Part shown: positions 2,241 to 21,803 of the stretch, piece by piece | Numbering within the stretch: the first letter of the stretch is position 1 | How the letters are laid out: each line of letters begins with the position of its first letter | Assembly: GCA_002085355.1 (NCBI GenBank) | Contig: NATN01000012.1 | Location: forward strand, 1 to 34,033 | Origin: Candidatus Zhuqueibacterota bacterium 4484_87 | GTDB lineage: Bacteria > Zhuqueibacterota > Zhuqueibacteria > Thermofontimicrobiales > Thermofontimicrobiaceae | Length of the DNA: 34,033 bases | Direction: 5' to 3' | The notes under the pieces: generated by a model | The model's input: the letters and a program-made list of their open reading frames with translations, nothing else | What the model was told of the DNA's origin: nothing | Databases searched by the model: none | Made by a program: the position numbers and the translations under genes

Positions 2241-3212
2241 ATGCAAAAATTAAATTCGATTTCAAAAGGAGTTACCAAACTGTCAATGAATATCCACGAT
2301 TATGAACAGATATCATTTCGGCAGGCTCTGAAGTGGTGGAATCTTGTACGCTGGTTATCCACCATCAGTTTTCTCGCGTTGGGAATCATCCAAATAAGCG
2401 CCAGTGGCTTTACTTTTCCTATTCCCGCTTTTGTCTTGACATTGTTGGCAATCACTCTCTTGAACACTGTTTACAGTCTCTGGATCGATCATTTTCATTA
2501 CAACATCATTTTTCCCATTATTCATAATTTGCTGGATATCATCATTTTTTCGATGGCTATTTTTATGACCGGTGGGATTAAAAGTCCCTTTTTGTGGGGC
2601 TATCTTATCCCGATTCTTACGTCAAGTATCACCATAGGCAGGACGATGGGATTTTTTGCTTCATCATTGAGCATTCTCAGTCTGTGGGCTATCTCGCAGC
2701 TTTCGCAGTCTCCCATTATGATAAATTTGAAAGCGAATTATGACGTCTTCAATTACAATCAATTTGAAATAAAAACTCTTCTCTCCTACGCTTGTTTGTT
2801 CTTTCTGGTCTATTTTATTTCGTCTTTTTTGGCAAATTCATTGCGCGAGCAAAATTCAAATCTAAAAGCGCTGAATGAACAATTAATAGACAAAACGAAT
2901 CAGATTTTGAAATCTCAGGAAAAAATATTGGAGATGGAACGTCGCGACACACTTTACCAGGCGGCAATGACAATGCAGCATGAAATCAATAATCCTCTGA
3001 CTATTGTATCGCTGAACACCGAAATGTTGGTTAAGGAAACTCCTTACGTCAACCCAAAACGGATTAAGACCATTAATGATTCAATTGAGAGAATCAAAAA
3101 CATTTTAAATAAAATGCGCTCACTACAGGCAAAATCTCTGAAAAAACGGGATGCGCTGAGTGGGCTGGAAATTTTTGAATTAAATGAAAACGAAAATCAG
3201 ATAATTTTGTGA
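2241..3212 (+). CDS. Polytopic membrane protein with PilS-like sensor region and HisKA (DHp) domain but no HATPase domain
   Basis: About 6 hydrophobic segments including PilS-like MTGGIKSPFLWGYLIPIL, a coiled coil, and H-box QHEINNPL (His247). The protein ends about 75 aa later with no N/G1/F/G2 boxes. The start could instead be the ATG at 2286. Confidence 0.8.
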   Translation: MQKLNSISKGVTKLSMNIHDYEQISFRQALKWWNLVRWLSTISFLALGIIQISASGFTFPIPAFVLTLLAITLLNTVYSLWIDHFHYNIIFPIIHNLLDIIIFSMAIFMTGGIKSPFLWGYLIPILTSSITIGRTMGFFASSLSILSLWAISQLSQSPIMINLKANYDVFNYNQFEIKTLLSYACLFFLVYFISSFLANSLREQNSNLKALNEQLIDKTNQILKSQEKILEMERRDTLYQAAMTMQHEINNPLTIVSLNTEMLVKETPYVNPKRIKTINDSIERIKNILNKMRSLQAKSLKKRDALSGLEIFELNENENQIIL

Positions 3213-8673: not shown

Positions 8674-11600
8674 ATGTGTCGATACATTATAAAGTTCGGG
8701 GCTATCGTAGTTATTAGCATTGTTCTTTTTCTGTCATGCGGAGACAATGATAATGTAGTGGGCTCAAAGACAGATTCCATTGAGACTTTGACGACATCGG
8801 AACCGGCGATTTTGGCTGATGGACTTTCGTCAGCAATCATCGTGGCGACTGTGCTTGATTCCAGCGGGAAGCATGCCGGAGGTCTGCCTGTTCATTTTGA
8901 AACGACTTTCGGTACAATCAATGAAACCGTGTACACAGATCAGGATGGCAATGCTTATGCATTGCTGCAGAGCGTTGCCAGCGCAACAGATATCAAAGCG
9001 ACAGTTACGGCAACTGTTCTGGATACGCTGTTCACCATTCCCAAAACTCGTGCGCATTTCGGAGTTAATCTGTCTGTGAAAGGTATGAAGTCGTTGCCCG
9101 GCAGAAAATTCGATTTAAAAAAATCTTCGGCAGCAGGAGAAAATTCAGCATCCATCGATGTTACTTTTCTGGGCATTACTTTCAGCGGCGAATTACAGGA
9201 AATCGCAATTCCGGCAGACGGCATCTCAAAAAGCCGCTTGAAAGTCAACATCAAAGAAACTACAAGCAAGAAGGCAATTACAGAAGCGCAAATTTCTCTT
9301 GCTGCGTGCTATGGCACGATTGTCAATAAAATCGTAACTGACAATCAGGGATTAGCACAAACCGACATTACGGCAGCGACAACCGAAGTGACGGACTCTA
9401 TTTTCATGGAATACGGGAATGTCTTCCGCGATACGTTGTTCATCAGCTACGAGAAGCCCAATATTTCTATTTCACCGAAAACAGTTTACTTGATTGCTGA
9501 CGGATCGAGCAAAACGACCTTTACTGTCTCGCTGAAATCGAAAGAGAATACCCCCATCGTGAACGCAGAAGTCCGTTTTTCAGCGACAAACGGCACCATC
9601 GCGCCCAGTTCAGTTTTCACGAACAGCGAGGGAATCGCTCAGGCAACACTCACAAGCGTGGCAAAAGTGGACACAAATGTGCTCGTCATCGCGCGTTTGA
9701 ATAGTTTTGCAGATACATCTCATGCCAATTTTATCAAGCCGATTCTAAGCCTTACTCCGGAAACTGGAGAATTACCGGCGGATGGCAACAGTGAAATGGA
9801 TTTTACTGCCTCCCTCCTGCTGCCGGATCACACTCCTGTCGTCGGCGCAGTAATTAATTTTTCAACATCAGCAGGCTCGATTACTCCGGCTTCCGGTGAG
9901 ACAGATGCCACCGGCTCTGTGAGCGCAACGTTGAAGAGCAGTTTTGATGAAAAAGAAAATGTCATCGTCAAAGCGGCATTTCAAGAGCTGGAAGAGACAG
10001 CAACCGTCAAGTTCTCTCTCCCAGTTCTGACAATTTCTCCGACTGAAGCCAAATTGCTGGCGAATGGCAGCAGCAAACAAACTTTTACAGCAGCGTTGAT
10101 TTCCCGCAATAATGTTCCTATTGAAAATGCAGAAATTGTGTTTTCAACAACGAACGGGACAATATCCAATTCAACAGCAATAACAAACGCCGAGGGAAAA
10201 GCGACGACAGATTTGCGGAGCAGTACCATTGCTGATTCAAATGTGAAAGTAATTGCTCAGTTTCATCATGCCGCAGACACTGCAGCCGTCGTTTTCATCC
10301 CGTCTTCCACCGAAAGCGGATTGATGCTGGACGGTGAAAAAGAACTGTTCCGTGATGGAATTTCATCCACTTCGATTACAGCCACCGTGTTGGACGACAA
10401 TGGAAATCCTGTCTCTGACGCGACAGTCTTTTTTACTGCGCAATATGGCACAATTCCGCAAACTGCAATCACGGGCACAGATGGCAAAGCGACAGTGACT
10501 TACACTGCTGATGTGGGAGAGAATAGTATTTCTGACGAAATCACAGCAACCGTCGGTACAGCGTCAGTAAGCCATGCAATAAATTTAATAGGGCTGACAA
10601 TGACCCTCACTGCTTCGCCTGACTCAATTCCCGCAGATGGGACGTCAAAGTCGGTAATTTCTGTACATTTAAAACAGACTGAATCTCAACTGGCAGTCCC
10701 TGGAATAAGTATTACTTTTACCAGCAATTTGGGATTCATAGGTACAACGGCTACGACGGACAATGAAGGGGTGGCAATTATTGAATTACGCGCTGCTTCA
10801 ACGCCCGGAAAAGCTACCGTGACAGCGACTTACGGACAATTTGTCAAAACAGTGGACGTTCAATTTTATTTGAACTCGCCGCAAAGTATGGTTTTGACTG
10901 CTGATCCGAATTACATCTGGGTAAAGGAGACTGGCAATCTCGAGCAAACAGTGATTACTGCCACAGTGTTGGGGGTTCAGGGACACCCCATTGGACATTC
11001 AGTTCCGATTAAATTTTATGTTCAGAATTCTCCTGATGAGAGCTTACCCGCAGACCAGCAATGCGGTTTTGTTGATGAAGCTGGTACTGTCGTGAGAGAA
11101 ACGGCTTCCATCTATACATCTGACGGATCAGCGAGCATCGGCTTCCGTTCCGGGACAAAATCCGGGACGGTAGAAATTCGTGCCGAATTAGTGGATCAAC
11201 CGCAAACATTATCTCGTCAGGCTGTGATTGTTATCCGTTCCGGTCCGCCCTACATCTGGATCGATCCGGCTGACCCCAATCATGTCTTACCGAACATGAC
11301 GCTTTATCTGGATTATTTCAACCAGGACGGCAAACACGCGCTGCGTGAATACAATGTCACAGCGCTTTTAGGTGATAAATACAACAATCCTGTTGAACAA
11401 AACACGACGGTTTATTTCACTACCACGGGTGGCGTCATCACAACCGATACAAAGACGGACGCACAGGGTTTCGCGCATGTATCTCTTTTCTCAGGAAACC
11501 CATTTCCGACAACATGTCCGTCCGATACGCGACTGGATCCGCATCAGATCCCTAATCCGAATGCAGACGGCTTATTCTTGCCCATTACGTTGACTGATTT

Positions 11601-12084
11601 TGAAGGAGGCGAGGTGGTCAATAGCTGCGGGGATACCGGCGAAAATGATGGCATCGCTGTCATTTATGCCTATACATGGGGCAGAGATCAAAACGGAAAT
11701 GATGCAACAGTATTTTCTACAGCAAAGGCGATATTTGGCGGCGCTATTGCCCACTTTGAGGTATTCGTCGATCCACCGGTGGATTCTCTGAATCCGGGCG
11801 AAGTTGCCAATATTCACATTCGCGTCTGGGACGAGCACGGCAATCCACCATCAGCAGGATCTTCATTAACAGCATCCACCTCTGCGGGGAAATTATCAGT
11901 TGAAAAATTTATGCCGGATAAAGATCGCTATGGATATGGCAGCACTTATTTTACAACATCTCTGCTCAATAATTTGGACCCTGTGGAAGACGAGGCGCAA
12001 ATGGCAGAGGTTACTATTGAACTGGATGCGCCCAATCCAAACGGGAAAGTAAGCGGAACTGTTTACGTATATCTAAAATTATAG
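8674..12084 (+). CDS. Large lipoprotein with about 10 invasin/intimin-type Ig-like (Big_1) repeats; putative adhesin
   Basis: Lipobox VLFLS|C. Repeated (I/L)PADG.S...(I/F)TA.(V/L).D..G.PV....V.F.T..G.I......TD..G.A...L motifs. S/T/A/V-rich composition. Confidence 0.82.
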   Translation: MCRYIIKFGAIVVISIVLFLSCGDNDNVVGSKTDSIETLTTSEPAILADGLSSAIIVATVLDSSGKHAGGLPVHFETTFGTINETVYTDQDGNAYALLQSVASATDIKATVTATVLDTLFTIPKTRAHFGVNLSVKGMKSLPGRKFDLKKSSAAGENSASIDVTFLGITFSGELQEIAIPADGISKSRLKVNIKETTSKKAITEAQISLAACYGTIVNKIVTDNQGLAQTDITAATTEVTDSIFMEYGNVFRDTLFISYEKPNISISPKTVYLIADGSSKTTFTVSLKSKENTPIVNAEVRFSATNGTIAPSSVFTNSEGIAQATLTSVAKVDTNVLVIARLNSFADTSHANFIKPILSLTPETGELPADGNSEMDFTASLLLPDHTPVVGAVINFSTSAGSITPASGETDATGSVSATLKSSFDEKENVIVKAAFQELEETATVKFSLPVLTISPTEAKLLANGSSKQTFTAALISRNNVPIENAEIVFSTTNGTISNSTAITNAEGKATTDLRSSTIADSNVKVIAQFHHAADTAAVVFIPSSTESGLMLDGEKELFRDGISSTSITATVLDDNGNPVSDATVFFTAQYGTIPQTAITGTDGKATVTYTADVGENSISDEITATVGTASVSHAINLIGLTMTLTASPDSIPADGTSKSVISVHLKQTESQLAVPGISITFTSNLGFIGTTATTDNEGVAIIELRAASTPGKATVTATYGQFVKTVDVQFYLNSPQSMVLTADPNYIWVKETGNLEQTVITATVLGVQGHPIGHSVPIKFYVQNSPDESLPADQQCGFVDEAGTVVRETASIYTSDGSASIGFRSGTKSGTVEIRAELVDQPQTLSRQAVIVIRSGPPYIWIDPADPNHVLPNMTLYLDYFNQDGKHALREYNVTALLGDKYNNPVEQNTTVYFTTTGGVITTDTKTDAQGFAHVSLFSGNPFPTTCPSDTRLDPHQIPNPNADGLFLPITLTDFEGGEVVNSCGDTGENDGIAVIYAYTWGRDQNGNDATVFSTAKAIFGGAIAHFEVFVDPPVDSLNPGEVANIHIRVWDEHGNPPSAGSSLTASTSAGKLSVEKFMPDKDRYGYGSTYFTTSLLNNLDPVEDEAQMAEVTIELDAPNPNGKVSGTVYVYLKL

Positions 12085-12198: not shown

Positions 12199-12687
12199 AT
12201 GATGCAGAATGTTTTACTGATTGGCGCATTTGTGATTTTGGGGATATTGATTTTATCAATTAACAGCACAATTTTCGTCACCAACAAAGCGATTAGAGAG
12301 AACGAAGTTCATATTACAGGAATCGGTTTGGGGCAAGCGCTAATAGAAGAAATCACTTCGCGGTCTTTTGATGAAAATACGACCGGGTCAAAAAGGGTGC
12401 TCTCCCCTTATCAATTGACGAGCGTGGATAATCTGGGCAAAGAAACGGGAGAGCCACCATTTGATGATGTGGATGATTACAATAATTACAGTAAAAAAGT
12501 CGATACGCCGCGAATCGAGGGATACATGATTAATGTAAAAGTTGGCTATGCGAATCCGTTGATCCAGAGGAATTTTATTAATACGAAAACATATCTCAAA
12601 AGAATTGAAGTAACGGTAAAAAACCCGAAATACATGCATAACCCAGATTCGCTGACATTAGCGACTGTAGTTTCTTATTTCAAATGA
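12199..12687 (+). CDS. Minor pilin-like protein (PilV/MshD-like), cassette A
   Basis: N-terminal hydrophobic helix, LIEEITSRSFDE, LGKETGE..FDDVDDY (MshD-like), KRIEVTV. Paralog of 14239-14742. Confidence 0.62.
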   Translation: MMQNVLLIGAFVILGILILSINSTIFVTNKAIRENEVHITGIGLGQALIEEITSRSFDENTTGSKRVLSPYQLTSVDNLGKETGEPPFDDVDDYNNYSKKVDTPRIEGYMINVKVGYANPLIQRNFINTKTYLKRIEVTVKNPKYMHNPDSLTLATVVSYFK

Positions 12688-12699
12688 AACAGGAAAACG

Positions 12700-13281
12700 A
12701 TGCAAACGACTTTCAACATAATAATTTCAATTATCATTTTTTCACTTTTAATGATGATAGTCGTAAGCGTCGATGGCAACGTGAAATCAATTTCCAGGCA
12801 GCTATCAGGAGACAAAATCGCCCAGGAAATGGTCGTTGTAATTGTTGAGTTAATCGACCATGATTTTGCAAAAATTGGTTACATGAAAACCGCCCCTAAA
12901 TTTAAATTAGGTGCGTTGGATTCAAATAGAATCACTTTTTATTGCGATTACGACAATAATGGGCTCATGGATTCTGTTTCATATTACTTTGACTGGGAAG
13001 CAAGTGCCGTGAAATCCAACCCACATATTCACCAACTGTATCGCAAGATGAATAATCAAAACCCTGAAAAGGTTGCTTTGGGAATTGTTCATTTCAATCT
13101 CGCTTATTTCGATGAAAATATGAACTCTATCAGCTACGGCAAATTGGCAGATGTGAATTATGTGAATCAAATTAGGGCGATTCGAGTCCGTTTGCGTGTA
13201 GAAACTCAATTTCAAATTGAAAATCATTTCGGAAGCGCTTATTGGGAAAAAGTCTATTTTCCTAAAAATTTAAATTTATAG
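12700..13281 (+). CDS. Minor pilin-like protein (PilW/GspJ-like), cassette A
   Basis: N-terminal hydrophobic helix, IDHDFAKIGY, DYDNNG, FNLAYFD, IRAIRVRL, PKNL. Paralog of 14763-15347. Confidence 0.62.
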   Translation: MQTTFNIIISIIIFSLLMMIVVSVDGNVKSISRQLSGDKIAQEMVVVIVELIDHDFAKIGYMKTAPKFKLGALDSNRITFYCDYDNNGLMDSVSYYFDWEASAVKSNPHIHQLYRKMNNQNPEKVALGIVHFNLAYFDENMNSISYGKLADVNYVNQIRAIRVRLRVETQFQIENHFGSAYWEKVYFPKNLNL

Positions 13282-13290
13282 AACTATAAA

Positions 13291-14139
13291 TTGCGCGGTA
13301 CTTTTGTCGAGGAAGATCAATATATGGATTGTGGAATCGATACGGTTGCCATTTCATCGGATTCTGCTAATCCAACAATCGGAGATACAATATCAGTGAC
13401 GGTAAAAGCCTGGTACAATGACAAAAGGAAAGAAGCTTCAGCAAAAGTCGTATTGTCACGATTGACAATACCGCCGCTGAAAGCAGCCGTTGCCTTCCCG
13501 GGTCAAAATCCGGTACTTGATCTCAACGGCGCGCCGCTTATTGATGGCAATAACCACGACTATAACGGAAATTTGTCATCTGTTTCCAACGATCTGCCAG
13601 GCGTCGCAGTTCACTCAACAACAGACAGCGTCAACATTGTGCAAAAACTTTACAATGACAAACAAGAAGATCACGTCATTGGATTTGGCGGAATACCAAG
13701 TGTGCAAGTCAGCACAGTAGATGATCCGTCCATTTTTATTGATCCCATTACTGCCAGCGCTGACTTTCATTTGGCAGCGGGAACCTATAGTTCAGTGATC
13801 TTTGGTTCCAAAGATGCGCCGGTTATCGTTTACGGCCAAGGTGATTTGAAATTTTCCGGTGGCGTTGTCGGTCACGGAATTTTAGTAATTGACGGTACCT
13901 TGACGCTGTCAGGTAATTTTTTCTGGTATGGCATTGTTTACGTCGTCGGACCTTCTCCGGAGATTTTTAACTCGGTTGGCACAAATAGGATTATCGGCGG
14001 TGTGGTACTCGGCGGCAAAGATAAGACCGCTCGTTTACGAGGTACAGCAGATATTAAGTACAGCTACGAAGCAGTCGAAAATGTGCGAAACAAGACAAAA
14101 AGTCTCCTGACAATGAGTTTGATTTCATGGTTCGAATAA
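13291..14139 (+). CDS. PilX-like protein, cassette A, apparently lacking its N-terminal pilin-like helix (5'-truncated)
   Basis: Third slot of the cassette. Gly-rich beta repeats (GHGILVIDGTLTLSGNFFWYGIVYVVG) and C-terminal ISWFE, matching ISWWE in 15369-16634. Weak TTG start, no RBS and no TM segment. Confidence 0.55.
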   Translation: MRGTFVEEDQYMDCGIDTVAISSDSANPTIGDTISVTVKAWYNDKRKEASAKVVLSRLTIPPLKAAVAFPGQNPVLDLNGAPLIDGNNHDYNGNLSSVSNDLPGVAVHSTTDSVNIVQKLYNDKQEDHVIGFGGIPSVQVSTVDDPSIFIDPITASADFHLAAGTYSSVIFGSKDAPVIVYGQGDLKFSGGVVGHGILVIDGTLTLSGNFFWYGIVYVVGPSPEIFNSVGTNRIIGGVVLGGKDKTARLRGTADIKYSYEAVENVRNKTKSLLTMSLISWFE

Positions 14140-14238
14140 TTTCTATCGATTAATTGTCACAGGAAGTATTTAATCGGTCAATGATCTTGCGCGACAATGA
14201 TCGGTTCGTAATTAGTTATTTAAAATTGGGTTGAGAAA

Positions 14239-14742
14239 ATGGGAAAAGGTGATCTCATATTAGTTATCGGCGGACTGTTGCTCCTGTCGATGTTCACGCT
14301 CTCGATTAATAGCTCCATTACAGAGAATAGAAAGACGCTTTACTCGAGCGAAAGTGTGCTGAATGCGTTGGCTCTTGCTGAAAAATACATTGAGGAAGCC
14401 GAAGCGCTTCGATTCGACGAAAAAAAATCAGCCACTATTCCCAGTTCATTCACGAATCCCAGCCGTCTCGGTCCGGATGATAATGAATATTATCCTAATT
14501 TCGATGACATCGACGATTTTAACTATTTCACTTATACCGATACTTCTTCAGGCAATGTACCGTACACGATTCAGATCAGGGTTTTTTATACGACACTTTC
14601 AAATCCTGATCAGATTTCTACCAGCAGAACTTACTTTAAAAGAATGGTCGTAAATATCTCATCACCATTTATGAAAAAGATCAACGATAAAACGATCACG
14701 TTGAAAAAACTCTTTGCTTATCATTATTTTTATAGTGAATAA
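14239..14742 (+). CDS. Minor pilin-like protein (PilV/MshD-like), cassette B
   Basis: N-terminal hydrophobic helix, YIEEAEALRFDE, LGPD..E...FDDIDDF, KRMVVNI. Confidence 0.62.
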   Translation: MGKGDLILVIGGLLLLSMFTLSINSSITENRKTLYSSESVLNALALAEKYIEEAEALRFDEKKSATIPSSFTNPSRLGPDDNEYYPNFDDIDDFNYFTYTDTSSGNVPYTIQIRVFYTTLSNPDQISTSRTYFKRMVVNISSPFMKKINDKTITLKKLFAYHYFYSE

Positions 14743-14762
14743 CAAAAAAATACGGTCAGAAA

Positions 14763-15347
14763 ATGAATGCAATAAGGGAATCAATACTGGCGCTGTTTCT
14801 TGCGGGCTGGATCATCATGATCGCTCTTCGTGTTAATACTAATACGACGCTTCACCTATATCACACGCAACAGAATGTGCTCAATCAAGAGAGTATGCAC
14901 CTACTGACTGATATTATCGAATATGATTTCCGTAAAATCGGTCATGGGTTATTAAATCCTCTCGGCGCCATTCAAGTCGCTGACAGCAATCGCATTGTAT
15001 TTTCCTATGATAAAGATCCGTCATTAGCGTATGATTCAATTAAAGTTGTTTATAAAATGGCCCCCATTGTACGTCGCAGTCACGTGTTCAACAAAATGCT
15101 CATCCGCAAAGAAAACTCAACAAAAATCACCCGTTTTCCGTTTGGCATTTCAAGATTTCATTTGAAATATTATAATAAACTGGGACAATTGTTGCCCACT
15201 CCGGTAGTATCTGATTCACTGGCAAGCATCCGAGAAATCGAAGTTTCCATCACGTTGGAAAGCAATAACCTTTCAGAAAAAGGATACGACCGGGCAAGAT
15301 ATGTGAGCCGCTTTGTACCCAAGAATCTTTTGAGTCATTACGAATAA
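14763..15347 (+). CDS. Minor pilin-like protein (PilW/GspJ-like), cassette B
   Basis: N-terminal hydrophobic helix, IEYDFRKIGH, FHLKYYN, IREIEVSI, PKNL. Confidence 0.62.
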   Translation: MNAIRESILALFLAGWIIMIALRVNTNTTLHLYHTQQNVLNQESMHLLTDIIEYDFRKIGHGLLNPLGAIQVADSNRIVFSYDKDPSLAYDSIKVVYKMAPIVRRSHVFNKMLIRKENSTKITRFPFGISRFHLKYYNKLGQLLPTPVVSDSLASIREIEVSITLESNNLSEKGYDRARYVSRFVPKNLLSHYE

Positions 15348-17780: not shown

Positions 17781-17826
17781 CATCTGATTGGTTAAAACAA
17801 AAAATACAGCAAATGAGAATGCAGCT

Positions 17827-19221
17827 ATGGAAAAGAACAATAACGATCCGAGGACAGTGCTTGTCGTTGATGACGACATAGTTGATCTGAAAATTATGGA
17901 GCGTTTTTTTTTAAACAAAAACTATCCACACTTGCTTGCCAAAAATGCTACTGATGGATTATCTCTGTTTCGCAAACATCATCCAAAAATCATTTTTATT
18001 GACCTGCTGCTGCCGGACATGAATGGCATTCAACTAATGGAACAAATTTTGGACGAAGATTCGGACGTTTCCATTGTCATCGCTACAGGTCATGCTTCTG
18101 TAGAAACCGCCGTAGAAGCGATCAAAAAAGGGGCGTGCGACTATATTACCAAGCCGATTGACATGACTCGACTGAATCTGCTCACAGAAAGGTTGATGAG
18201 ATCGCAGCAGGTTTTGATGGAAAAAATGCTTTTGCAGACCCGGCTCGATGAACTTTTCGGTTATCATAATTTTATTGGACAGAGTCCCGCGATAAAAAAT
18301 ATTATCAGAAAAATCGAACAAGCAGCACCCACGAGTTCCACCGTACTCATCACTGGCGAATCCGGAACAGGGAAAGAACTATGCGCCAATGCAATTCATC
18401 AGGCGAGTCCGAGAAAAAACAAGCCGTTTATCAAACTAAACTGCGCAGCCTTGCCTGAAAATATCATTGAAAGCGAGCTATTCGGTCACGAAAAAGGAGC
18501 GTTCACTACAGCCATTCAGAAAAGAATCGGCAAGTTTGAATTGGCAGATGGAGGCACCATTTTCTTAGATGAGATCGGCGAATTATCCCTGTCCATACAG
18601 GCAAAATTGTTGCGTGTACTGGAAAATCAGGAATTTGAAAGGATTGGTGGGAACGAGACAATCAGAGTTAACGTACGCCTACTCGCAGCGACCAACAGGA
18701 ACCTCAGTGAAGCTGTAGAAAACGGTCTTTTCCGCAAAGATCTGTTTTATCGGCTAAATGTCGTCAACATCCACATTCCGCCGTTAAGAGACAGGCGCGA
18801 AGATATTCCTTTGCTGTTGAGCCATTTTCTGAAACATTTCAGCGAGCAAATGAACAAGCCGATCAAATCCATTTCTCCTAAAGCACAGGCAATGCTTGCT
18901 TCTTATAGCTGGCCTGGAAATGTGCGGGAACTGGTAAACACCATCGAACGCGCTGTTGTGTTTTGTGAATCAAACACGCTTACGGAACAGGACTTGCCGG
19001 ACCAAATATCAGGGAAAAATTCACAGAGAGAGGATGGCACAGACATTCCCATTATGCCGTTAGCTCAGGTTGAAAAAAAATTGATAGAGAAAGTACTTCT
19101 GGAAACAAATTGGAATTTGCGTCGTGCTGCAAAAATTTTAGATATTCACCGAGGCACTCTGTACAGCAAAATTGAAAAACATGGCATTAACAAAAACAGC
19201 TTGCTGATGGTCATGAACTAA
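17827..19221 (+). CDS. Sigma54-dependent response regulator (NtrC/PilR family: REC-AAA+-Fis HTH)
   Basis: VLVVDDD, IDLLLP, GESGTGKE, ESELFGHEKGAFTTA, TIFLDEIG, RKDLFYRL, WPGNVREL and C-terminal HTH. ATG at 17827 preferred over TTG at 17788. Confidence 0.93.
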   Translation: MEKNNNDPRTVLVVDDDIVDLKIMERFFLNKNYPHLLAKNATDGLSLFRKHHPKIIFIDLLLPDMNGIQLMEQILDEDSDVSIVIATGHASVETAVEAIKKGACDYITKPIDMTRLNLLTERLMRSQQVLMEKMLLQTRLDELFGYHNFIGQSPAIKNIIRKIEQAAPTSSTVLITGESGTGKELCANAIHQASPRKNKPFIKLNCAALPENIIESELFGHEKGAFTTAIQKRIGKFELADGGTIFLDEIGELSLSIQAKLLRVLENQEFERIGGNETIRVNVRLLAATNRNLSEAVENGLFRKDLFYRLNVVNIHIPPLRDRREDIPLLLSHFLKHFSEQMNKPIKSISPKAQAMLASYSWPGNVRELVNTIERAVVFCESNTLTEQDLPDQISGKNSQREDGTDIPIMPLAQVEKKLIEKVLLETNWNLRRAAKILDIHRGTLYSKIEKHGINKNSLLMVMN

Positions 19222-19292
19222 ATTAACGGAGATTTTTTTCTCCGGAAAAATTTCTTTAAAATTACTTTCATCAAAGAACGAGGTGAATCATT

Positions 19293-19727
19293 ATGTCTCC
19301 TCAAATTGACAACCAAATCGCTGGCAAAAAGCCTGCAAAAAAGATGCTCATCATTGACGATTCTGAAGTCAATCGTTACTTGTTGGAGACAGTGCTTAGT
19401 CAGTTGGGCTACCAAGTAAGTTCTGCAGAGGATGGCAAGTCAGGACTGGATAAATTCAAACAAAACAGACCGTTCATTACATTTTTAGACATTGTTATGC
19501 CCGGAAAATCAGGAATGGAAATTTTGAGACAGATAAAACAAATTTCTCCGTCATCTATTGTCGTCATGGTGAGTTCATTTTCGAGCAAAGAAAATCTTTA
19601 CGAAGCGAAAAATGCTGGAGCTAATTGGTTCCTCGTCAAACCAATCACGGCGTCAAAAATAGAGGAATTAGTGGTTTATTTTGAAAAGAAAAGCATAGAG
19701 AAAAATCTAAAAATTGAGTCGGAGTAG
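19293..19727 (+). CDS. Single-domain response regulator (CheY-like)
   Basis: MLIIDDS, FLDIVMP, VMVSS, FLVKP. GAGGTG RBS upstream. Confidence 0.9.
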   Translation: MSPQIDNQIAGKKPAKKMLIIDDSEVNRYLLETVLSQLGYQVSSAEDGKSGLDKFKQNRPFITFLDIVMPGKSGMEILRQIKQISPSSIVVMVSSFSSKENLYEAKNAGANWFLVKPITASKIEELVVYFEKKSIEKNLKIESE

Positions 19728-19729
19728 TT

Positions 19730-20074
19730 ATGATTTGCAAATCTTGTGGTGCTGAGAATAAAGACTGGGCGTCATATTGTACACAATGCGGATTGCCGCT
19801 TGGCGATGTGTGTCGTTGCTCCTTCGTTAACGAACCGGGTGACCTTTACTGCGGAGGCTGCGGCAAACCGTTGATGCCAAACGAAAATGATAATTTGAAA
19901 CGAAACCCGTCCAGCATGAATGTTGAATTTGGCAAAATGACACTTTCTGAATCCCAAATTAAAAAGCTCATAAGAGAAAGTTTGTTGATCAAAACAGATG
20001 ATGAAGAAAACATCAGTCAAAAGGACATCGATTTGATTTTTTCCATGGAAACAGAATCAGCTTCACAAGAGTGA
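19730..20074 (+). CDS. Double zinc-ribbon protein with acidic C-terminal tail
   Basis: CKSC, CTQC, CRC and CGGC motifs. Tail ENISQKDIDLIF. Starts 2 bp after the upstream stop. Confidence 0.8.
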   Translation: MICKSCGAENKDWASYCTQCGLPLGDVCRCSFVNEPGDLYCGGCGKPLMPNENDNLKRNPSSMNVEFGKMTLSESQIKKLIRESLLIKTDDEENISQKDIDLIFSMETESASQE

Positions 20075-20111: not shown

Positions 20112-21803
20112 ATGGCATTTCAAGAAGATCAGATTTTCATTCAGGAATTGATAAAAAAAGGTCTACTGACAAAATCTCAAATTATTCAGTCGCAAAACTC
20201 TTTGCGGGAACTGCTTCAACGCGAGGGAATTGCTAAAGCGTTAATCACCCATTTCAAACTCGATGAAACCAAATTAGCGCAATCCATCGCTGAAATTTTT
20301 AACGTTCCTTTTTTGGAACAGGTAAACGGCCTCTCTCGAATAGATATTGAGGAATTGCAAACAGTTAATACCCCGTCAGATTTTCGCTTCATTCCTGTAT
20401 TAGATGATATCAACGAAGTCACCATAGCCATCAAAGATCCGCCATATCAAAAATTAATTGAATTTCTCAAAAAGGCAACTGACAAACACATTATTCCCAT
20501 CATCTTAAAGGAATCGGACTACGAATATCTGAACAATGAAAAAGTCGTCGAGAAAAAAGTTGACAAGCCGTTGAAAATTGATTTTGACAAGCTTGACGTC
20601 GAGAAACAAGGAAAAAAATGGGCGCTGACCGCAGAACAAAGCGGATCGCTGCCGCCGCCGAACAGCGTGCTTGACAGATTGTTAGAAACCGCCAGTGAGG
20701 CCAATGCGAGCGATATTCATCTGGAAATCACTTCTTCAAAAACAATGAACGTGAGATTTCGCCTTAATGGTGTGCTCCAGCGCGTTGTTACGCTGCCGAA
20801 TGCGTATGCGTCTTCGCTGCCCAAAATTGTCAAGCAAAGAGCTTCCATTGACAATTTTGAGAAAAAAAATGCGGCAGAAGGAAGTTTCTTCATGCAATTC
20901 GGAGGTGTTAAGACAAACTATCGCGTCAATATTATTCCCACTGCTTTCAATGAAAAAATTACGCTGCGCGTAATGAACGATCATCTCGACATCATCCGGT
21001 TGGAGCGTCTGGGACTTTCGTTGCATGATTTACGACGAATCCGCCGACTGTTGTCCCAGCCCAATGCAGTAATTCTTTTTTCCGGGGCAAGCGGAAGTGG
21101 CAAGACAACCACGCTGTACTCCGTATTGAACGAATTGAATCATTTCACGAAAAACATTACCACTGTCGAAATGCCGGTGGAAGCCCATTTGGAAGGAATC
21201 AACCAAATTTCCATCGATCAAAACTCTGCATTAAATTTTGAGAAAGCGATCAAAGCGACTTTCCATCATGACGTGGATGTCCTCGCTCTGGGGGAAATTC
21301 GCTCGAAAGAAGATGCTGAACTGCTTTTAGAAGCGGGATTATCAGGATTGACCGCTTTTGCCACAATACAAGCCTCAAATGCAATAAAAACTCTTTATCG
21401 TCTGAAGCATTTTGGCGTGGACATTGAACAATTCGCTTTGACCTTGCGAGGCATCGTCTCGCAGCGTTTTGTGCGCAAGGTGTGTCACTACTGTGGGCAA
21501 GAATATATTCCTGATGAAGAAATTCTGGCAAAAGCAGGATTGGAGAATCTACCAAAAGATATCAAATTGAAACGTGGAATTGGTTGCAAAAATTGTCTGG
21601 GGACAGGTTATCTGGGCAGGATGCCCATTTTTGAAGTGCTCATTTTTAACGACACAATCAGTTCGCTGCTTGCCCAAAATAGACCCTATCGCGAAATCTT
21701 TGCAGCCGCACTGCATGAAGGTTTCACAACAATGCGTTACGACGGACTTCGCAAAGCGCTGGCAGGAATCACCACGCTCAACGAAGTCCTTCGCGTCACA
21801 TGA
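20112..21803 (+). CDS. Second GspE/PilB-family ATPase with degenerate catalytic motifs
   Basis: ASDIHLE, RFRLNGVLQ, Walker A GASGSGKTTT, CHYC...CKNC, GYLGR. The Asp box reads EMPVE, the Walker B region FHHDVDVLALGEIRS, and the His box SGLTAFATIQA. Confidence 0.85.
   Translation: MAFQEDQIFIQELIKKGLLTKSQIIQSQNSLRELLQREGIAKALITHFKLDETKLAQSIAEIFNVPFLEQVNGLSRIDIEELQTVNTPSDFRFIPVLDDINEVTIAIKDPPYQKLIEFLKKATDKHIIPIILKESDYEYLNNEKVVEKKVDKPLKIDFDKLDVEKQGKKWALTAEQSGSLPPPNSVLDRLLETASEANASDIHLEITSSKTMNVRFRLNGVLQRVVTLPNAYASSLPKIVKQRASIDNFEKKNAAEGSFFMQFGGVKTNYRVNIIPTAFNEKITLRVMNDHLDIIRLERLGLSLHDLRRIRRLLSQPNAVILFSGASGSGKTTTLYSVLNELNHFTKNITTVEMPVEAHLEGINQISIDQNSALNFEKAIKATFHHDVDVLALGEIRSKEDAELLLEAGLSGLTAFATIQASNAIKTLYRLKHFGVDIEQFALTLRGIVSQRFVRKVCHYCGQEYIPDEEILAKAGLENLPKDIKLKRGIGCKNCLGTGYLGRMPIFEVLIFNDTISSLLAQNRPYREIFAAALHEGFTTMRYDGLRKALAGITTLNEVLRVT

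Follow-up and report, generated by a model that had tools for sequence, protein, structure and literature searches.

A zinc-ribbon protein with a FliM-like C-terminal peptide, encoded between a stand-alone receiver and a PilB-like ATPase, as a candidate pilus-motor cofactor

The three-gene module and the ZnR protein

A stretch of 34,033 nucleotides from Candidatus Zhuqueibacterota bacterium 4484_87 (assembly GCA_002085355.1, contig NATN01000012.1, positions 1 to 34,033; hereafter the window, meaning the whole stretch analysed) carries three adjacent plus-strand genes, which together form the module described here. The first (19293-19727, +) encodes a stand-alone receiver (REC) of 144 amino acids (aa; Pfam Response_reg, 90.1 bits). 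ZnR, as we call the 114-aa product of the second gene (19730-20074, +), joins a double zinc ribbon to a C-terminal helical module on a tether, and the third gene (20112-21803, +) encodes a 563-aa PilB-like ATPase (T2SSE, 275.9 bits). The receiver gene stops with TAG at 19725-19727 and ZnR starts with ATG at 19730, leaving a gap of 2 bp; a GGAG sits 8 nt before this ATG, and 37 bp separate the end of ZnR from the start of the ATPase gene. Open reading frame (ORF) calls and Pfam matches agreed with the layout given in a first-pass annotation of this DNA, in which ZnR begins 2 bp after a stand-alone receiver and a PilB-like gene comes next. A short, G+C-rich inverted repeat (CGGAGA-loop-TCTCCG, 19227-19244; strand not assigned, called on the minus strand by the repeat scan) lies between the gene of a sigma-54 activator and the receiver gene. 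This repeat may act as a terminator between transcription units, in which case the module would possibly have its own promoter. A scan for sigma-54 promoters gave 11 matches against 9 expected by chance, and none of them precedes the module.

The N-terminal part of ZnR (residues 1-50, 19730-19879, +) is a double zinc ribbon with eight invariant cysteines and two pairs of CxxC-type knuckles, which matched both DZR (PF12773; 33.6 bits, cut-off 27.3) and Zn_Ribbon_1 (PF13240; 33.9 bits, cut-off 25) and was modelled by AlphaFold2, from a 21-row alignment, with a predicted local distance difference test score (pLDDT) of about 86. The cysteines are invariant in alignments of eight close relatives and of 21 relatives. 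A variable linker follows (residues 51-71, 19880-19942, +), predicted to be disordered, with pLDDT below 50 at residues 53-57 and 59-68; its sequence is not conserved among relatives in the alignments. The tail consists of motif 1 (residues 72-87, 19943-19990, +; LSESQIKKLIRESLLI) and motif 2, the FliM-N-like peptide (residues 93-104, 20006-20041, +; ENISQKDIDLIF), for which AlphaFold2 predicted helices at residues 74-87 and 97-108, both with pLDDT 64-77. Both peptides named at first pass were recovered: the C-terminal core ISQKDIDLIF lies exactly at 20012-20041, where it had been placed, and the weaker peptide, LSESQIKKLI, lies upstream at residues 72-81 (19943-19972), within motif 1.

Other members of the family help to interpret this tail. 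In three of them, of 249-313 aa (P0017-P0019), the ribbon and the two-motif module stand at opposite ends of long low-complexity linkers, and one member carries motif 2 twice. When longer proteins were searched with a profile restricted to the C-terminal module, 29 matches came back; 27 of these are 103-125 aa long, and 26 of the 27 have a zinc-ribbon Pfam domain. Because of the pLDDT pattern, the long-linker members and the matches of the module-only profile, the tail is read, from sequence and model, as a short linear motif on a flexible tether and not as part of a globular domain. Foldseek found no match of the ZnR model in the PDB at E ≤ 0.001, the weak rows being RanBP2/NZF-type zinc fingers, and the whole protein searched against Pfam gave no FliM, CheZ-domain or PilZ match. 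No natural fusion of ZnR or its tail with a receiver or PilB occurred among 157 collected proteins and the 29 longer matches, which is weak evidence of absence.

Conservation of the ZnR family and of its gene neighbours

A word search returned six close relatives with 52-72% identity to ZnR, and others came from related genomes. In all close relatives the eight cysteines and both C-terminal motifs are kept and the intervening stretch is variable. A profile of eight orthologues searched against 1.84 billion representative proteins gave 2,531 matches at E ≤ 0.001, mostly generic zinc ribbons, and 62 at E ≤ 1e-10. Among the 157 proteins collected, 84 were at most 145 aa long and bore the terminal motif (regular expression Q..[ILVM][DENKQ]..[FLIM] within 25 residues of the C-terminus); one doubtful sequence was left out, giving an alignment of 83. 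Family members are mostly 100-125 aa. After the double zinc ribbon comes a linker that varies, then motif 1 (consensus Q[LY]S..[ED][IL].[ED]LL, headed by Gln in 42/83), about 20 residues, and motif 2 (consensus [LVI][STD]Q[DE][DE][IL]D.[LI]F), which ends 0-12 residues from the C-terminus. In motif 2 the Gln is present in 83/83 aligned members, the Phe in 82/83 and the second Asp in 72/83; these counts are partly circular, since members were chosen by a regular expression on the same motif, although the profile search that supplied the candidates matched the full length without that filter. The family alignments showed that the SQxxID-type motif, on which the first-pass annotation had built its proposal of an adaptor with a CheY~P-binding peptide (CheY~P, phosphorylated CheY), is kept not only in orthologues but also in relatives at much greater distance. 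In the window's own genome (887,027 residues in 2,987 ORFs of at least 100 aa), the pattern [ST]Q.[DEQ][ILV]D.[LIM][FL] has a single occurrence, in ZnR. NCBIfam holds no model for the family, and where sources name its members, the label goes no further than ‘zinc ribbon domain-containing protein’ or ‘hypothetical protein’. The ESM Atlas returned generic DZR clusters only, at ≤0.89 (Nitrospirota, Bacteroidota and Pseudomonadota), which are leads to taxa and not evidence.

Full-length ZnR was found at 30 loci (27 distinct ZnR sequences), comprising the window, nine loci from species-representative genomes and 20 metagenome contigs, and the neighbouring genes were counted by a scripted tblastn with the module's receiver and ATPase sequences. 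A PilB-like gene lies directly downstream of ZnR at all 30 loci, in most of them after a gap of 1-37 nt. The receiver lies directly upstream of ZnR at 25 loci and directly after PilB at two (L010 and L038); its position was not assessable at three (L031, L036 and L037), where the contig ends inside PilB, and it is present at 27 of the 27 assessable loci. Pfam searches of the scanned loci confirmed Response_reg on the one side and T2SSE plus MshEN on the other. The receiver/ZnR/PilB-like set that had been noticed in a single stretch is therefore kept at every assessable locus, with identities to the window's ZnR falling to about 28-35% in a distant subfamily. Within the window's phylum, full-length ZnR occurred in 7 of 167 genomes searched, all seven with the triad; one further genome (G159) had a zinc-ribbon-only match and counts in the denominator only. 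In the distant subfamily the triad stands outside any pilus cluster, with no extra receivers close by. There, a divergent histidine-kinase gene with an HATPase_c domain adjoins the triad, a GH38-like gene follows the ATPase, and no other pilus genes are close; histidine-kinase genes beside the module were located at L014:1971-3323 (-), L016:850-2094 (-), L021:2025-3431 (-) and L074:2-1015.

The receiver of the module looks phosphorylatable: the window protein has the acidic pocket D22/D23, the phospho-acceptor D66, S94 at the T87 position of CheY, a Phe at the Y106 position, and K116-P117. The 21 module receivers compared form one conserved group, in which D22, D23, D66, K116 and the Pro are invariant, S94 is nearly so, an aromatic residue occupies the Y106 position in 21/21, and a Lys at the start of alpha5 is also invariant. 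The window receiver shares 33% identity with E. coli CheY and 28-32% with three receivers encoded upstream in the window. Prediction of the receiver and ZnR as a complex, run without controls, scored 0.32, 0.27 and 0.26, the mark being 0.32, and counts neither way.

The ATPase of the module scored 334.4 bits with the TIGR02538 PilB equivalog model, whose cut-off is 675.65, and is accordingly a T2SSE family member and not an equivalog. Walker A, the Asp box and, within GE(I)R (GEIR in the window protein), the Walker B glutamate are all intact. Motif alignment showed other residues in place of both His-box histidines in the window protein (TGHLVLSTLHTN to SGLTAFATIQAS), and similarly in three related ATPases; the four genes lie at 20112-21803 in the window, L011:5371-7062, L012:3114-4808 and L013:3188-4882. 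The His box is kept in the ATPases of the distant subfamily (L014-L038) and in the other PilB of the window. Given the sub-equivalog score and the missing His-box histidines, the ATPase of the window's clade may be a paralogue, slow or regulatory, that accompanies the canonical PilB.

The FliM-like tail and its candidate partners

The tail was compared with fetched sequences of flagellar proteins. FliM of E. coli K-12 begins with MGDSILSQAEIDALLN, containing the peptide ILSQAEIDALL, and 30 FliM loci from flagellated genomes of the window's phylum yielded 28 FliM frames, many of which start with peptides like ILSQSEIDELL. One of these N-termini, VLTQHEIDKLF, is indistinguishable from the ZnR consensus. 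Peptides were scored with an 11-column log-odds matrix made from 87 distinct ZnR motif instances, against a background of the 2,987 ORFs of the window's own genome, with ZnR itself among the high scorers. For 21 of the 28 phylum FliM frames the N-terminal peptide scored 14.2-28.0 bits, a level reached by 0-4 of the background ORFs, and E. coli FliM scored 14.8 bits, with three background ORFs as high. Measured in this way, the likeness to the FliM N-terminal peptide that the first-pass annotation had asserted proved real at the motif level. FliM, FliY and ZnR have in common the conserved positions and spacing h-[ST]-Q-x-[DE]-[IL]-D-x-[LI]-[LF], and in each case a short helix sits on a flexible tether. 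They differ in that the ZnR peptide is C-terminal, that of FliM N-terminal, and in that the ZnR peptide ends in Phe and not in Leu (82/83). In addition, the ZnR peptide is attached to a zinc ribbon and not to the FliM switch domain, follows a second conserved helix and occurs in genomes without FliM. According to the available part of PMC9126983, FliM and FliY of flagellar systems bind CheY-P through their ‘EIDALL’ motif, in the alpha4/alpha5 groove.

No FliM scored over cut-off in the window's own genome. Across the phylum, FliM was over cut-off in 54 of the 167 genomes and in none of the seven with full-length ZnR. These seven are 73-97% complete and are related, not independent, which makes the absence of FliM a consistency check and not a statistical test. 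Because none of the seven has FliM, ZnR is not a flagellar part or remnant.

We propose that ZnR is a tethered-peptide cofactor that couples the phosphorylated receiver to the PilB-type ATPase, a reading that we hold tentatively and that falls slightly short of probable. The double zinc ribbon would anchor ZnR, possibly to the ATPase, and a histidine kinase would phosphorylate the stand-alone receiver. The activated receiver would then expose its alpha4-beta5-alpha5 face, where the ZnR tail would capture it as FliM and CheZ capture CheY~P. Held beside the PilB-like ATPase, the captured receiver would alter the activity, assembly or location of the enzyme. Receiver binding, its dependence on phosphorylation, the relay to PilB and the direction of the effect are the steps that we infer.

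Several observations weigh against this proposal. In the window receiver, L and Y stand in place of CheY K119 and K122, two lysines that contact FliM. The matrix gave at most 3.2 bits for the remaining seven of the 28 phylum FliM frames, some of which lack the peptide and two of which are possibly mis-picked. The top background ORFs, a TPR lipoprotein (15.9 bits) and a thymidine-phosphorylase-like ORF (15.5 bits), were level with many FliM peptides; the latter (G000:C133:27105-28436), from the window's own genome, has the N-terminus NFSQDEIDYLI. The likeness spans only about 10 residues and is not specific, and because unrelated background ORFs score as high as FliM peptides, the motif alone is not diagnostic and can arise without any link to CheY. 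Scans of the PDB and Pfam likewise gave the C-terminal module no profile-level kinship to FliM, CheZ or any solved chain: its profile matched only two PDB chains, both at chance level (ribosomal L19e, E = 0.093; aspartate carbamoyltransferase, E = 0.69), and 23 C-terminal modules scanned against Pfam at E up to 10 matched no FliM, CheZ or Spo0E-like model. The likeness to CheZ, also asserted at first pass, is weak. E. coli K-12 CheZ ends with VVASQDQVDDLLDSLGF (peptide VASQDQVDDLL), similar in its C-terminal position and S-Q-x-x-V-D-x-L-L pattern, but it scored only 6.3 bits, with 117 of the 2,987 background ORFs as high. Like ZnR, CheZ carries a C-terminal tethered peptide of the form S-Q-x-x-[IV]-D-x-L; ZnR is without the CheZ domain or four-helix bundle.

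The gene order itself bears on the choice of partner. The order ZnR-PilB is constant at 30/30 loci and the place of the receiver varies, on either side of the pair, which fits a ZnR-PilB pair at least equally well. The helices of ZnR could thus bind the PilB-like ATPase, for example its MshEN-type N-terminal domain, as a PilZ-like stabiliser or regulator, with the receiver acting on PilB or on the ribbon directly and the likeness to FliM-N being convergent or coincidental. The motif-level matches in unrelated proteins are in keeping with such a coincidence. Nevertheless, genuine FliM N-termini from this phylum have the spacing and the conserved positions of the motif, and the receiver is present at all 27 assessable loci. 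We also know of no PilB-binding peptide with the sequence of the ZnR tail, and the available text of PMC11656802 gives none. There are precedents for both contacts: according to the available text of PMC11656802, the small adaptor PilZ binds residues 12-163 of X. citri PilB, and receivers bind PilB directly, without an adaptor, as described for PixG~P-PilB1 of Synechocystis (available text of PMC11181946) and DrdR-PilB/PilT of Xanthomonas (available text of PMC13507683), which is a further point against the capture of the receiver by ZnR. Taken together, we regard binding of the tail to PilB as unlikely, though a genuine contender; if it is true, the ZnR family would still add a new class to the known cofactors of PilB.

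The C-terminal position of the peptide, as in CheZ, also raises the possibility that ZnR is an auxiliary phosphatase or targeting factor for the receiver, a mini CheZ or Spo0E, in which the peptide docks on the receiver and the two-helix module places conserved polar residues at the active site. The acidic S/T-Q-x-[DE]-h-D motif that starts helix 2 of the predicted hairpin recalls the Spo0E family, small two-helix hairpins with S-Q-acidic-h-D in helix 2, whose SQELD (SxxxD) motif contacts the Spo0A receiver (available text of bioRxiv 10.1101/2023.03.28.534590). The Gln at the head of motif 1 in about half of the members (42/83) would suit this role as well. The spacing in the ZnR family, however, is S-x4-D and not SxxxD, one residue off, and ZnR differs from Spo0E in having a zinc ribbon and a tether. 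Moreover, 0/23 C-terminal modules matched Spo0E-like or CheZ in Pfam, no PDB sequence matched, and the strict pairing with PilB would be left unexplained. A phosphatase role is therefore quite improbable in our judgement.

The tail may instead recruit another partner, such as one of the receivers encoded at 936-2189, a chemosensory CheY or a polar hub, with ZnR mainly localising the ATPase. Three more stand-alone receivers lie in the cluster and the window's own genome has CheW and CheA-like genes; CheW was present in three of five ZnR genomes tested. A portable ligand is also suggested by tandem arrays of the motif in two long acidic proteins, P0184 (1188 aa) and P0185 (586 aa), which carry 8-10 copies (e.g., ELSQDDIDSLLNG and VLNQDELDALFAGN) and no Pfam domain, and one of which bears the source label ‘pilus assembly protein FimV’. 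From these arrays, motif 2 may be a portable docking peptide. Their matches to the C-terminal-module profile, however, are weak (E = 1.5e-4 and 0.02), the triad of the distant subfamily has neither a pilus cluster nor extra receivers near it, and the adjacent receiver co-occurs at 27/27 assessable loci. Nothing ties the 936-2189 receivers to ZnR, and recruitment of another partner has only a slim chance of being right. A clamp-binding or SSB-tail-type motif was also considered for the tail and set aside as unlikely on its spacing.

The proposed coupling of receiver and ATPase through ZnR has parallels in known systems. The PilZ-FimX system of Xanthomonas and Pseudomonas likewise uses a small protein (PilZ, ~120 aa) to join the pilus extension ATPase to a signalling protein, as given in the available text of PMC11656802. 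PilZ is a barrel, whereas ZnR is a zinc ribbon plus peptide; a c-di-GMP/EAL protein lies upstream in the one case and a phosphorylatable receiver in the other, and binding of ZnR to PilB is a proposal. Archaeal CheF is an adaptor that brings CheY-P to a motor of the type-IV-filament class, the same logic as that proposed for ZnR; it is unrelated to ZnR, and in the available part of PMC9126983 its binding mode is unlike that of FliM-N, the type that ZnR resembles. The PixG and DrdR systems provide post-translational control of a pilus ATPase by a receiver, as proposed for the ZnR module, and the available parts of the two reports describe no dedicated small adaptor gene between receiver and ATPase, unlike the ZnR module. 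The PilB cofactors covered in the available part of a 2024 review (PMC11656802) are second messengers, PilZ and FimX, CpiA and phage peptides. We found no description of a zinc-ribbon PilB cofactor or of the ZnR family in open-access papers and bioRxiv. Neither capture by such a peptide nor a cofactor of PilB is a new idea; the ZnR family and the combination are new.

The route from phosphorylated CheY-like proteins to the type IV pilus motor is only partly understood, with contacts between receivers and PilB and the c-di-GMP adaptors PilZ and FimX as its known elements. The triad suggests, without proving it, a new wiring of two-component signals to the pilus motor. If the coupling holds, it would be a compact and genetically self-contained alternative, testable with three small proteins; the flagellar CheY-capture peptide would be a portable motif outside flagella, and a family annotated only as zinc-ribbon proteins would gain a function. 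On a broader view, the widespread triad could be the missing output link: through it, phosphorylation by two-component or chemosensory systems would directly gate a motor of the type IV pilus class in flagella-less bacteria, with reuse of the CheY~P-capture peptide and with the tandem copies in acidic hubs reflecting a general docking code for CheY-like proteins. This wider picture we consider possible but somewhat unlikely.

The surrounding pilus cluster

In the window, a large type IV pilus cluster on the plus strand ends with the module; the cluster runs from a canonical PilB through three receivers, a PilS-like kinase, a PilT-family ATPase, a secretin, a Big_1-repeat protein, small ORFs, and DUF4900 and DUF4347 proteins to the sigma-54 activator. 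The canonical PilB gene (10-918, +) is cut by the window edge. The three consecutive stand-alone receivers (936-2189, +; 133, 118 and 129 aa) lie between it and the kinase gene and are closer to each other than to the receiver of the module. Directly upstream of the module, with the hairpin between them, lies the gene of an NtrC/PilR-type sigma-54 activator with its own receiver (17788-19221, +; Pfam Sigma54_activat, Response_reg and HTH_8).

Directly after the secretin gene, the Big_1 protein (8674-12084, +) has 1136 aa and seven Big_1/invasin-D3 repeats. Five small ORFs of 162-282 aa (12199-15347, +), with no Pfam match, lie between the Big_1 and DUF4900 proteins. The PilS-like kinase (2241-3212, +; 323 aa), whose gene is followed 2 bp downstream by the PilT-family gene, combines 6TM_PilS with HisKA. 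It had no HATPase_c match and ends about 28 residues past the HisKA match, and it seems from its sequence to be a kinase without the catalytic ATP-binding domain.

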